The position numbers were made by a program. From the IMG/VR virus record IMGVR_UViG_2703718873_000025: 18,324 nt of DNA, one strand, 5' to 3'. Below, in pieces: positions 1 to 6,000 of the stretch. The first letter of the stretch is position 1; the number at the start of each line of letters is the position of its first letter. The DNA comes from a virus. Lineage: Duplodnaviria; Heunggongvirae; Uroviricota; Caudoviricetes.

Positions 1-3000
1 ATGGCGCTGTCTGATGCGTGGTTGCGTTCAGTCGTTGGAAAGAAACGTGATAAGGTTTTGGTTAAATCCGATCGTGATGGTCTGTCTGTCAGAGTATCAC
101 CGAAAGGTCGCGTAGTGTTCCAATATCGTTATCAATGGGCAGGGAAAGGTGAGCGCCTTGATATCGGAACTTACCCGGCAACTGGATTAAAAGAGGCCAG
201 AGAAGAAGTTATCCGTCTCCGTGGTGAACTCGAGTTAAACCGCAATCCACGATTAGTCAAGCAGGCTGAAAAACGAAAAGCTACTGAAGCCATGACGGTA
301 GAGTCTGTGATCCGTGCCTGGTATGAAGCATATTGTGTAAAAAATAAAAAAGGTTCTGAACAGATACTCCGCTCGTTTGAGCTGCACCTGTTCTCTAAAA
401 TCGGGAATATCCCTCACGATGCAGCTACATTGCATGATTGGTTAGAAGTCCTGGAGCCTCTTAGCACCAAGACTCCAGCAATAGTAGACCGATTGCTAAT
501 TAACGCAAAGCAGGCTCATGTCTGGGCGTATAAGAGAAAGCTCATTGAAACTCGCCCACTGTCGGATATCACGGGTAAAGATATGGATATCCGTAAAGGT
601 CAGAAAAAACGGTTTCTGACACATGATGAAATTAACATCCTTTATGCTGCGATCGATGGTTCTCGAATGGTTCCTAAATACCGAGCCTTCATTAAACTAT
701 TGCTGCATTTTGGTTGCCGTAGTTCAGAGCTAATTACTGCTAGGGTGGATGATTTTGATTTCATAAATAAGGTATGGACTGTACCACCAGAACGACATAA
801 GACTGGGGACATAACAGGCGAACCGCTAAAGCGGCCCATTATTGAACCGGTTGAAGAGCTTATAAAATACGTTATCTCTATGAACAACGGTTCCGATATG
901 CTTTTTACCAAGGAAGGAAGCAGGGAGCCAGTTGGTCGGACATCATTGCAGTCGCTGCCTTACAATTTAATGCAGTTCGCATGGCGACGTTTGGGGTATC
1001 AATTTCCTCATTGGTCTCTTCATGATTTGAGACGAACAGCACGAACAAACTTTTCTGATCTTACTGCTCCTCATATTGCTGAAATAATGCTCGGTCATAA
1101 ACTGCCAGGTGTATGGCAAGTTTATGATAAGAGCGATTATCTAGAAGAACAGCGTAAAGCTTACTGGGCATGGTGGGAGAGGGTTGAATCGATCGTTACT
1201 TGTACTGACTTAATCTCCAACGGACAGTTTGCGTAGCCAGAGCGTAATCATATCTGCCAGTCCGCTGCGGATACCTTGTGTACTGGGTTTTTAGCCAGAC
1301 TACGTTAACCGGTAGCTTCAGTATTTGGGGGGGCGGCAGGAGTTTGATGGTTTATTGGGTTACTGTGGGACTAAGGATGTAGGGATGCCAATCAATGAAT
1401 TATGAAAAATATCATAGCACAAACAGAAGCAAGGGTTTGCGAACCTTCTGCTACTTAATTTATTATGTGCAGGTGATTTTTAATGTGATGAAGTGTTTTA
1501 TGACTCGCGGAAACTTTGATTTTATAAACTCTAACGTGGTTTTCTCAGAAGCCGATAAGTCATTGTGGATTGATCTCATTAACACCGATTGTATTTGGTA
1601 TGATATGATAATTAATCCTCCTGATGATATAAGAACAAATAAGATAATAAAGAACCATCTCAGAATTATGGAAAAATATACGAGGGAAAGCTGTGAAAAG
1701 AGATTTATTTATTTCTTAGGTTCAAGAAAAAAAGTGAGGTTTTCAACCAAGAAACAGCCTAGGTATAACCCATTCACAAAAAATATAGTATTCACTCTGT
1801 TGATTGGCAAAGAAGAGCGAAAGCTTCGGATAAAATATTCCTTTTGCACGTTTACGCAGAATGGGGTAGTGAAGGTAACTCCAAATGTTAGAGTAACTGA
1901 GAAGTTTCTCTACATTGAATATGAAAATGGCAATTTATGTGTAATGTCAGTTCATGACTTCGTAAACGGACATTATATTGATTTAGGAATTCATACAGAA
2001 GTGCATTACGTAGGATATACACGTCATCCGCATCGGCGCCCTGTTGATTTTATTCACCGTGGCTTATCAAAGATGCTGTATAGCGTTTCAAATGACGATA
2101 ATGATTTTTTTGTTTGTTTTAGTATATTTAATCCAAGGATTATATCTCTGAATAATAAATGTAATATAGTCTTTAATATTTCAAATTCTCTACTGGATGA
2201 AATTGATGTTGATAATGAGGGAAGAATTATTGAAAGCTGCTTAATACGTTACTTTGATCCTAAGCTTCAAGATGATGACAAGGAAAGTAAAAGGTCAGAT
2301 TTAAATAAAATGTTTATGGACTTGGTGGAAAATAAAAAAATTAAAAAAATATACGTTAATTTTCAATATGAAAGGAATAATGAGTATTTCTGCTTTTACT
2401 CTAAAGTTGTTCCGCCGAAATTTCATCATTTCTTTGTGTTGGATTTTTCTGATGGCAAGATAAATATTGATAGAGACCAGGATCTGATGACTCAGATGGC
2501 ATTGTGCATGGGGTATTATAATTATTAATATTTCGCCTGATACCAACTCAAAATCTTTTTTGTCGCATCCATTGTGGATTAATATTCAGAGGTGAGGGGT
2601 GTCTGCGGAATTTATATTTTGCAGGATGAGCATACAATACATGATATAACATCTGTTTTTGGCACAGAGCATATAGTCAGATTATGTTTAGTTCTGTGCC
2701 ATAGATGGATACTATCTCACCTCTTGGCTAACTCTCATTACTCAATAACTCCAGCAAATCTGTATATTTTGCGTGATGCCCATTTATTTGGGCAGGATTT
2801 AATATCAGGATCTGGAAAATCTGGCCTGTATTTCTGGCCTGTCCTCCTGTTTACGCTGTTCCAGCGAAGCACCGTCGATATTGAAACGCCACAGAATTCG
2901 GCGACTTGTTTTGTTGTCATTAAGTTGCTCATTGCTACCCCTCCAGCGGTTGTTCAGTTGAAAGACTCATGCGTATGTGCGTAACTCCGATAACTCGTTA

Positions 3001-6000
3001 AAGCGTTCCATAAACATCCCGTAGGCATGGCCCGGTGCCAGTGGCATCACGTTGAACATCTCTGTTGCCGGGATACCTTCCAGTACTGGCCAGAAAGAGC
3101 CATCATCAAGCCCGAGATCGCGGCGTTCGGTTGCCAGCATGATGAGATCGGCATATTTCACAGGCGTGCTCATAACCGGGGGTAACCCGTATTTCTCACG
3201 GATTACGGCGTCTATTTTTTCTTCCATCCGTTTATAGTCAGGAAGAAGGCGTTTCAGTGGAGCGGGAATATCCTGGCAATACGCTTCTGTTGCATCATGC
3301 ATTAACGCTTCAAAAGCAAATTCCTGCGGCACCAGCTGGCTGCAAAGCACCGCATGCTGGGCGACACTGTAGAAGTGTGAAAGATGTCCTGCAAAGCGAC
3401 AGATATTTGAAAGGGAAACTGCGATATCGTTAATCACGATGTCGTCTTTATTTATCCTGTCATAATAAAAATGCTTCCCGGAAAAAGTTTTAATAAATGA
3501 CATTTCGTTCTCCACTTTATATGCGCTGCACCGCGTTGAATTCTGCTAAAAGGAAGCTCTCACCATCCGGTGATTATTGAGTTAATTACGTTTCCATAAA
3601 TGCCCCCGCAGGGGCATTTGCAGTAATGAAATCAGGCGGTGAAAGTACCAATAAAGGTTTCTACTTTGCTGTCTTTGAATTTCTCAACAAGCAGATCACG
3701 AAATTCGTTAGCCATTTCTTCCTGCACCGCTTCCAGCTGAATAATGCGCAGAACCAGTACAGGACGATCGCCAGTGATAATGCTGAGGCGTAATTTAAAC
3801 GGACGTTCTTTCAGGCCTTCAAACGGAACGCATTTAAATTCAAATGCCACTGGCATAATGTCTTTGGTTTTCGCTTCGACAGACTCCATCAGAGAGCGTT
3901 TGCCGCTGAAGTCATTGTCTTCAAAATCAGCGGTCTGGTTTGCTTCAATTGTGATTTTACGGACTGCCGCAGCCGCTTTGGTTGCCTGAATGGTGTCACC
4001 ATTAGCATCAAAGCCCACAAGGTAGTCGGCCCAGTCTTCAATCCATTCTGCCAGTGACTTCTGGGAGTTACGCTCGCCATTAACAGACAGCAGGGCAGAG
4101 AACGGTGCTGTCTTTTTCAGTTTGAGAGTGGCGGTGTTATCTGCGTGACCTGGTTCATCAATAGTACCTAGGTTAAGCACACTGACGGCTCGCATATTAT
4201 CGGCATCGATAAAGCAGCGGGTGCCTTCATCTGCAAGATCTTTAGAATAACGGGTAAAGTCATCGATGCTGGCAGTGGAAAGCGCACCACGGAAACGGAA
4301 GCGATTTAAATTAAATTTTTCCAGATCATGAATGCGGAAATTCTCAGGCAATGCCACAGCATCGGCACCAATCTTACTGATAATTTCATTAACACCCTGA
4401 GCAGAAATAAGGGCATGGATTTGATTAATTGCGGTTGCGTCTAAGTTCTGAGACATAATAAGTCCTCACTATATTAAGATATTCAGTGATGAGATAAATA
4501 ATCAGTTAATTAAGAACGATATTAATGACCTGCTGCGCGGAGTTTTCCGTCAGGCTCACCGGCAAGAGTCAGTAATTGTCCCTGGTCTTCCTGCAGAATA
4601 GTCAGGCGACCACCGCGATTGACATACATCGGCGTTTCGGTGGTGTCTTCTTCGGAAATTTTCCCGCGGTTAGTCGGGCGAACATATGAGAGTTTGTGTT
4701 TGATTTTCACACGGTTCTCATCAAACGGTTCGATTTCCAGGTTGAGCGAGACCTTACCTTTGGTTTTCGTGTTCATCACACCGGAAGCGACTTCACTGAG
4801 AACTGCGCCGATTTTTGTTTCAAATACGCCGCCGTCCAGCTCCCCGATAAATGCCTGCACATCAGTACTGCGTTCGCTAGCCATTTTGTTGCTCCTCATC
4901 ATATCGACCCTGCAAGGTCGGTTGGTTTCTCCACAAAACAGAGAAGAACACCTGCGGTGGCAGCCGCCCGGATGGATTGGGTTATGAGCCCGTCGTCCGG
5001 TGATGCTCTTCTCTGTTTTGTAAAAAGAGCGGTACCAGCCGGAAGCAAGTGTACAAACTGGTACTGCCAAAGCAGTGGCTGTTGTGGTGACCGGTGCTGA
5101 TCTCCGGCTTGCGGTTATTTCAGACTCTCACGGGCGTTTGATTGCCCCGCCGAACAGCTCTTTTCCGCAATAGCTGCAATGTCTTTCGCGCATCAGCCTG
5201 CGCATTCACCACAACGCTGAGAGCATTGCCGGTGTCCGAATCGAACGGACCTTTTCCCTGCCCAACCCTCCCATCTGAATGGGACTGTCTGGAATTGAAC
5301 CAGCACTTATGCCTTGCTCGTCAATGCTCTCATCGTTGCGTCCTGGTCTCTTCCCAGGCGTCAAACCGAATCGCCACGCTGGTTAGGCGTCTTATCAGCA
5401 TCCTCATTGACTTGCACATTCCGGCTACCTGGTTTGTTTGCCCGAGCAAGGAGTGGATTGTCCCCTTTAACGTCCCCAGACCGCTAACGACGCATGTGCC
5501 ATACGCCGTGTTACAACCAAATTTTGTTAGGACCTTGTTTGTTGGTCTGGAAAGAAAGATAAAATGAAATTGCGCATTATGCAAGTGTTTTTGTTGCGAG
5601 ATGCGCAATATGATGGGTGATGAAAAGCCACCTTCTGGTGGCTAATTGATGAGGAGGTCGGGGTTAATTGTGTCGCTTAAGGGTTTGTGACTGACTGATT
5701 AAGACCTTCCCAAAGACCATAAACCGGTGTTCGTTTTCGCTGGTAATTCCCCATTCACGGTAAATCTGGTTATCAGAAATCACCAGTAGTTTGTCAGGTA
5801 TCATTTGCAGTCGTTTGACATAAATTTTATCATCAAAACCAAACACATAGATACCATCCCCATCAAACTGATTGATACTGATATCAACGAAGATGAGATC
5901 TCCTGGCTCAATGGTTGGACACATACTGTCCCCACGAACGTTGATAACTTTAATGTGATTGGCTGGTCGTCCTCCAAACATCGATACAGCATTATCAGTT

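Follow-up and report, generated by a model that had tools for sequence, protein, structure and literature searches.

What do the first genes of the early-left operon do for a lambdoid phage that carries neither a recognizable N gene nor a recombination (Rec) module beside them? This question is raised by IMG/VR record IMGVR_UViG_2703718873_000025, a Caudoviricetes sequence of 18,324 nucleotides (nt) that we refer to as the window. Its minus strand is filled exactly, from 2967 to 4884, by three open reading frames (ORFs), yfdR, yfdQ, and yfdP. The explanation that we favor is that these genes are a known cassette at the head of the leftward early operon and that they serve in early takeover of the host; we assign this explanation, taken as a whole, a probability of roughly 0.55. 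Its functional part, in which YfdR would act on DnaA and YfdP-YfdQ in DNA metabolism, draws on multicopy experiments in Escherichia coli K-12 and on synteny and, taken by itself, is offered tentatively, with the odds somewhat against it.

The three proteins are nearly identical to those of prophage CPS-53 in K-12 MG1655. BLASTP comparisons gave 173 of 178 identical positions for YfdR (97%), 271 of 274 for YfdQ (99%), and 119 of 120 for YfdP (99%). At the DNA level, the homology forms a single block (2961 to 4903, 96.9% identity by blastn) with sharp mosaic borders and no match in the flanks. For yfdR, we count from the ATG; the ORF listing uses a GTG at 3515, which adds four codons. DNA matching a 3-kb query around the cassette is present in 3201 of 5426 complete E. 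coli genomes and in 94 phage records, including SfV-like phages, mEp460, and Stx1a- and Stx2-converting phages, and several chromosomes of Shiga toxin-producing E. coli are 100% identical over the same 3 kb. The best matches carry the RefSeq names “yfdP,” “YfdQ family protein,” and “yfdR: 5'-deoxynucleotidase.” Since matching DNA is widespread in E. coli and its phages and is annotated in RefSeq, the three ORFs are real genes rather than chance ORFs. It is essentially certain that they constitute the yfdP-yfdQ-yfdR cassette, which has been named before and is carried by many E. coli lambdoid prophages; a yfbR/yfdR-yfdQ-yfdP cluster is described as fairly common in lambdoid early-left operons (PMC12315714, 2025).

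To what extent are the three genes one unit? A first scan of IMG/VR returned identical E. coli loci only, which inform on architecture variants and not on diversity: the trio is intact in all 80 E. coli-type loci, and the genes downstream vary. We compared 78 species-level loci, among them loci of Hahella, Pseudomonas, Limnohabitans, and Alcanivorax. In 76, yfdP immediately precedes yfdQ, and the two exceptions have truncated yfdQ matches. yfdR comes next in 58 of these loci, usually as the direct neighbor, and about 20 lack it. Homologs of yfdP and yfdQ also head an operon (2639 to 8241) in the virulent Xanthomonas podophage CP2, together with genes for a DUF1351-like protein, Erf, an exonuclease, an endonuclease, and a single-stranded DNA-binding protein (SSB); there, ORF38 is the YfdP homolog (hhalign probability, 99.3%). 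Given the adjacency in 76 of 78 loci and in CP2, and the more restricted presence of yfdR, the conserved unit is an obligate yfdP-yfdQ pair found across Proteobacteria and in a virulent Xanthomonas phage, and yfdR is a frequent but dispensable enterobacterial add-on. An earlier note on this DNA had described a conserved trio, shared with CPS-53, in the leftward early operon. Both the sharing with CPS-53 and the position, between a cI-type repressor gene and xis/int with leftward transcription, are borne out; as to the trio, all three genes are present, but only yfdP-yfdQ is obligate. A GC-rich hairpin (Table 1) lies 15 nt past the yfdQ stop codon, within the 128-nt gap between yfdQ and yfdR. 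It was not called by the terminator scan, its U content being too low. It may serve as a partial terminator or as a stabilizer where the pair meets the add-on, and it fits the modularity of a yfdP-yfdQ pair plus yfdR.

YfdQ matches Pfam family DUF2303 (PF10065) over residues 7 to 272 of 274, with 309.5 bits against a cut-off of 26.6. The DUF2303/YfdQ family has 1763 representatives at 50% clustering, and its best 150 are nearly all single-domain proteins of about 265 to 285 amino acids (aa). YfdQ also matches a solved structure of 36 chains, PDB 9o7m, “YfdQ Protein” (E = 1.5e-44), whose sequence shares 98.8% identity with a gene of Xanthomonas phage MET23-P3 and 93% with one of CP2. The structure originates from the CP2 phage group, and a literature search found no paper for it. 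YfdP matches phrog_204 (E = 1e-49), and its homologs carry PF27127. AlphaFold models reached a mean confidence (pLDDT) of 77 for YfdQ and 67 for YfdP; in the model of the latter, a helix and a three-strand sheet are accompanied by a C-terminal tail of low confidence, which is predicted to be disordered and is the best-conserved part of the YfdP alignment. Fold searches with both models gave no informative neighbors. We considered YfdP and YfdQ as DNA mimics and rejected the idea, as isoelectric points of 5.7 and 5.0 are merely mildly acidic.

YfdR narrowly misses the gathering scores of two Pfam families (24.2 versus 25.9 bits for PF12917, YfbR-like; 16.9 versus 22.5 for PF13023, HD_3). Nevertheless, its sequence places it in the HD metal-dependent phosphohydrolase superfamily, because it matches phrog_318, “deoxyribonucleoside 5' monophosphate phosphatase” (E = 1e-109), and PDB 2gz4, the HD-domain structure of Atu1052 (E = 2e-13). 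An alignment of 25 homologs that are 65 to 87% identical shows no variation at H50, H69, and D119 and at least 90% conservation at D70 and E73. The metal-site residues align with VAQH, HDA, and KKAD of 2gz4, and HDATE and VKYAD align with HDASE and VKQAD of E. coli YfbR; as judged from these alignments, the H...HD...D metal site is intact. The earlier note had called this protein an HD-domain hydrolase of the 5'-deoxynucleotidase (YfbR-like) kind and had proposed checking whether the motif residues are lost on alignment; with H50, H69-D70, and D119 conserved, the call stands. Yet YfdR scores only 19.9 bits against NCBIfam NF003009, the YfbR equivalog (5'-deoxynucleotidase), for which the cut-off is 122. 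YfdR and YfbR share the H...HD...D ligands and the HDA(S/T)E and VK(Q/Y)AD motifs, but they are only about 24% identical, and DnaA binding is reported for YfdR only. By sequence, then, YfdR belongs to a distinct clade, the YfdR ortholog group, and is not a YfbR ortholog or equivalog.

The published work on K-12 YfdR points away from the nucleotide pool and toward the initiator of replication. YfdR was described as structurally homologous to YfbR, a 5'-deoxynucleotidase, and as having far lower affinities for nucleotides; it binds domain I of DnaA (Phe46), where it competes with DiaA and DnaB (PMC4776307). Multicopy yfdQ and yfdR with yfdS or yfdT inhibit initiation at oriC both in vivo and in extracts, a block for which yfdP is not needed, and deletion of yfdQRST has no phenotype (PMC4776307). 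Of the roles suggested in the earlier note, inhibition of host replication therefore has experimental backing through YfdR and DnaA domain I, although not by way of the nucleotide pool and with a requirement for yfdQ plus yfdS or yfdT; the other suggested roles have no such backing.

Under the explanation that we favor, the cassette would be the first protein-coding output of the leftward promoter (PL) upon induction or infection and would act as a host-takeover module. YfdR would sit on DnaA and dampen initiation of the host chromosome, its hydrolysis of deoxynucleoside monophosphates (dNMPs) being a weak, secondary, or vestigial activity. YfdP-YfdQ would form a separate two-protein unit, a large YfdQ homo-oligomer with a small partner, that works on DNA metabolism alongside YfdR. 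Expression would probably be set by two structured RNAs and a terminator-like hairpin in a leader of about 650 nt. Two points weigh against this scheme. The authors of the K-12 study concede that the oriC block could be an overexpression artifact (PMC4776307). Moreover, BLAST comparisons with K-12 found no counterpart of yfdS, yfdT, or torI in the window; without yfdS and yfdT, this prophage has only part of the gene set for which inhibition was published.

The position of the cassette follows from the arrangement around the repressor gene. A hairpin followed by a U run, which resembles a terminator, comes after cI at about 5621 to 5641. Operator-like ATWWTGCGCR sequences occur at 5571, 5602, and 6399 (4 matches in the window versus 0.54 expected), and inverted repeats I4 and I7 connect the site at 5564 to 5614 with the cI-cro intergenic region. 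Because of this terminator hairpin and the operator-like motifs and inverted repeats shared by both sites, a leftward PL with its operator (OL) just downstream of cI is the natural reading, the promoter being a putative one. The locus thus has the form of a lambda-type early-left operon, with leftward genes from cI to xis/int and operators shared with the cI-cro region, and the cassette provides the promoter-proximal genes of this operon in an SfV/ST64B/mEp460-type lambdoid prophage carrying stx2b. Between int and cI, family scans recognized no N-like gene and no Rec module, and the ORFs of the leader match no functional family.

What, then, occupies the gap between yfdP and cI? According to blastn comparisons with the species loci, it contains blocks of 80 to 93% nucleotide identity in genera whose YfdQ proteins are only about 57% identical. 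One of these blocks, element B, ends about 40 nt before the yfdP start and folds with a minimum free energy (MFE) of -51.2 kcal/mol (z = -7.95). In an alignment of 27 distinct sequences, 92.6% of cells are paired versus 39 to 56% with partners slid, and 14 pairs change on both sides versus 4 to 8. Its variable hairpin spans 14 to 39 nt between fixed alignment columns, and many pairs are G·U in the sense strand only. A covariance model located element B 40 to 60 nt upstream of yfdP in 42 of the 78 species loci, extending to Proteus, Providencia, Serratia, and Yersinia, and found a single copy in the window. With blastn, we found it in 71 phage records, among them SfV, SfII, SfIV, ST64B, phiNP, LLS, cdtI, and mEp460; HK022 is absent from the records listed. 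Judging by its loop, the CUCAUAA hairpin appears anticodon-loop-like.

Other readings of the leader blocks were rejected. As small proteins, they are contradicted by in-frame stops in 11 of the 27 sequences and by hairpin lengths in all three classes modulo 3; the matching PHROGs are tiny families with function unassigned. A DNA cruciform or an antisense RNA is at odds with the sense-only G·U pairs and with covariance model scores of 114 bits in sense versus 44 in antisense. Separately, the 3' end of element B (4921 to 4935, minus strand) shares a 15-nt sequence, UGUGGAGAAAC(Y)AAC, with the region just upstream of the ORF that starts at 7255 (7238 to 7252, plus strand). Both copies are in sense orientation, and 14 of 15 positions are identical; the sequence may be no more than a common ribosome-binding region.

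Element A lies closer to the putative promoter. Its closing stem is the inverted repeat 5212 to 5231/5319 to 5338, and two of its hairpins have T-loop-like loops, UUCAAUU and UUCGAUU. RNAalifold, applied to sequences from nine genera, gave 40 pairs, 11 of them with changes on both sides, and the MFE z score is -3.48. Element A occurs in 10 of the 78 loci and once in the window. We also considered a boxA/boxB nut site at 5186 to 5231 and rejected it: its GCTCTCA is the 3' arm of the element A closing stem, and no other close copy of its hairpin exists in the window. Between elements A and B lies a further hairpin, the arms of which covary between genera in the alignment; the terminator scan did not call it, as its loop is 19 nt, and its sequence makes it terminator-like. 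At E ≤ 1, Rfam gave no match to either element in 4800 to 5720. Elements A and B are conserved, covariation-supported folded RNAs that are apparently undescribed. They may be cis-acting RNAs controlling the early-left operon of N-less lambdoid phages, including Shiga toxin phages, and may form with the obligate YfdP-YfdQ pair a widespread early-expression unit, a proposal that we hold at a little less than even odds. As to how they would work, protein-independent antitermination across terminator-like hairpins and processing of the RNase III or RNase P type that sets yfdP translation are guesses.

Several rival explanations draw on the same observations. YfdR could be mainly an enzyme, an early dNMP phosphatase that remodels the pool by draining host dNMPs or by removing a non-canonical or toxic dNMP, with DnaA binding incidental. 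Homologs only 65 to 87% identical show little or no variation at the catalytic H...HD...D residues and at E73 and D78, which argues for selection on catalysis, and both RefSeq and PHROG name the protein a 5'-deoxynucleotidase. However, a phage that replicates DNA has little to gain by hydrolyzing dNMPs, and YfdR falls far under the YfbR equivalog cut-off, so that we regard this explanation as unlikely. HD domains also include cyclic-nucleotide phosphodiesterases, which lends some weight to an anti-defense module in which YfdR hydrolyzes nucleotide second messengers or YfdP-YfdQ sequesters or blocks a host immune factor. The promoter-proximal position of the cassette in temperate and virulent phages alike would suit such a role, as would the large YfdQ oligomer, a trait of many phage sponge proteins. 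Yet structure searches showed no fold similarity to known sponges or ring nucleases, the literature searched contains no experimental hint, and PADLOC, whose library holds defense rather than anti-defense models, gave no match for the three proteins; this account has a low probability.

Nor does the absence of a Rec module lead us to expect a replacement for it in YfdP-YfdQ. It is true that 12 exact Chi sites (GCTGGTGG) lie between 6947 and 16415, 7 on the plus and 5 on the minus strand, versus 0.61 expected from shuffles, and none left of 6947; in this respect, the window fits the published LLS functional type with no Rec module and high Chi (PMC12315714). In addition, the CP2 pair adjoins Erf, an exonuclease, and SSB, the pair of Burkholderia phage JC1 lies in a replication-and-repair module with RecT and YqaJ, and a K-12 yfdQ deletion is reported to be sensitive to methyl methanesulfonate and H2O2. 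But some phages, such as ArgO145, carry the cluster along with a complete Rec module, and a hidden recombinase role was judged unlikely for that reason (PMC12315714). CP2 and JC1 already encode annealing proteins of their own, and fold searches matched none of Rad52, RecT, Erf, Gam, and Ku; we therefore consider an unrecognized recombination or DNA repair function improbable. The most doubtful of the rivals makes YfdQ a virion-associated protein injected with the DNA. gp10 of JC1, a DUF2303 protein, was detected in virions by mass spectrometry (PMC9144972), and the 36 chains of the only solved YfdQ structure, that of a Xanthomonas podophage, would fit a 12-fold particle component. Against this, lambdoid yfdQ belongs to the early-left and not to a late operon, its CP2 counterpart lies in an early DNA metabolism block, and yfdQ persists in the cryptic CPS-53, which leaves very little room for a structural role.

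Table 1. Features of the window, with the cassette and its leader first and the remaining genes after them
Feature	Position	Strand	Description
yfdR	2967-3503	-	HD-domain phosphohydrolase, 178 aa from ATG
yfdQ	3632-4456	-	DUF2303/YfdQ family protein, 274 aa
yfdP	4522-4884	-	Small partner protein, PF27127 family, 120 aa
GC-rich hairpin	3600-3617	-	AUGCCCC-UGCG-GGGGCAU then UUAU; 7 bp, loop UGCG; read from sequence
Gap without annotated gene	between yfdP and cI		~780 nt
Element B	4925-5029	-	25-bp closing stem, hairpin with loop CUCAUAA, variable-length hairpin; 105 nt
Terminator-like hairpin	5022-5067	-	GGCAGUACCAG...CUGGUACCGC then UCUUUUU; directly before element B
Element A	~5205-5345	-	~20-bp closing stem around three hairpins; ~140 nt
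Putative OL/PL	5550-5615	-	Operator-like repeats and CATAAT -10, just downstream of cI terminator
cI-type S24 repressor	5664-6356	-
Excisionase	2738-2932	-	phrog_1553 excisionase, E = 1e-34; final gene of leftward operon
Integrase	1-1236	+
Low-GC ORF	1395-2528	+	377 aa, ~32% GC; no assigned function
cro-like gene	6454-6714	+
cII/YmfL	6707-7258	+
Rha-family gene	7255-8403	+
tRNA-Arg genes	14176-14252, 14266-14342		Then stxA2b/stxB2b, by RefSeq annotation of identical chromosome (~14176-16157)

The remainder of the window is that of an Stx prophage (Table 1). The prophage is inserted beside yjjG and carries a Q antiterminator gene, two tRNA-Arg genes, and stxA2b/stxB2b; since the tRNA-Arg pair is followed by the toxin genes, the window is the left arm of an Stx2b-converting prophage. 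The excisionase gene begins 34 nt after yfdR and is unrelated to K-12 torI. The 377-aa ORF matches phrog_7779, with function unassigned, and has no Pfam, NCBIfam, or PADLOC match; its place between int and xis is typical of morons. Rfam matches to isrK (7615 to 7691) and to C4 antisense RNA (7716 to 7803), both on the plus strand, lie inside the 5' half of the Rha-family coding sequence, which suggests a P1-type c4/ant immunity leader and a coding sequence start annotated too far upstream. Another Rfam match, STnc100 (15757 to 15965), overlaps the stxA/stxB junction. A second block with 96.4% DNA identity to CPS-53, covering yfdM/yfdN, lies at 9352 to 10184 in the opposite relative orientation, a mosaic relationship.

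Regarding the trio itself, little is new: the genes are named and widely annotated, and one molecular activity, the binding of DnaA by YfdR, is published. What is new is the obligate pairing of yfdP and yfdQ, the solved structure of YfdQ, and the two covariation-supported leader RNAs. Many Stx2 phages and cryptic prophages have this cassette as the first coding output of their early-left operon, and because a YfdQ structure exists, the biochemical role of YfdP-YfdQ is now testable. The leader RNAs, for their part, could explain how early transcription is controlled in a large group of N-less lambdoid phages; in Stx phages, this control bears on induction and hence on toxin release. Overall, the gene finding is correct but ordinary, and the leader RNAs and the obligate pair are the parts worth following up.

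How does this locus compare with known systems? The proposed action of YfdR has parallels in lambda P and in Bacillus subtilis SirA, phage or developmental proteins that likewise bind DnaA and lower initiation at oriC; SirA and YfdR both use the Phe46/Phe49 surface of domain I (PMC4776307). Neither is related to YfdR in sequence or fold, however, and lambda P differs in binding domain III and in also loading DnaB at the phage origin. Regarding the leader, the HK022 put site and the RNase III hairpin of the lambda N leader are, like elements A and B, structured RNAs between PL and the first early-left gene, and the authors of the LLS study proposed put-like antitermination because N is absent. 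The put sites are about 70 nt long with two stem-loops, and similar copies lie downstream of PL and of the rightward promoter, PR (PMC9378689). Elements B and A, in contrast, form three- and four-way junctions over greater lengths and have no right-operon counterpart; neither a covariance model nor nhmmer found a second copy of either in the window. K-12 CPS-53 (KpLE1) has the same three genes in the same order but continues with yfdS, yfdT, ypdJ, and torI, and it has lost the repressor and leader side, with yfdO upstream; the window retains the full cI-PL leader, and its prophage looks intact. Finally, SfV, ST64B, phiNP, mEp460, LLS, and Stx2 phages share the cassette, element B, and the cI/cro/cII-Rha layout. 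In most relatives, yfdR and xis are separated by yfdS-like (DUF551), ead/Ea22-like, and exonuclease genes, compared with which the window is a minimal version of this arrangement.

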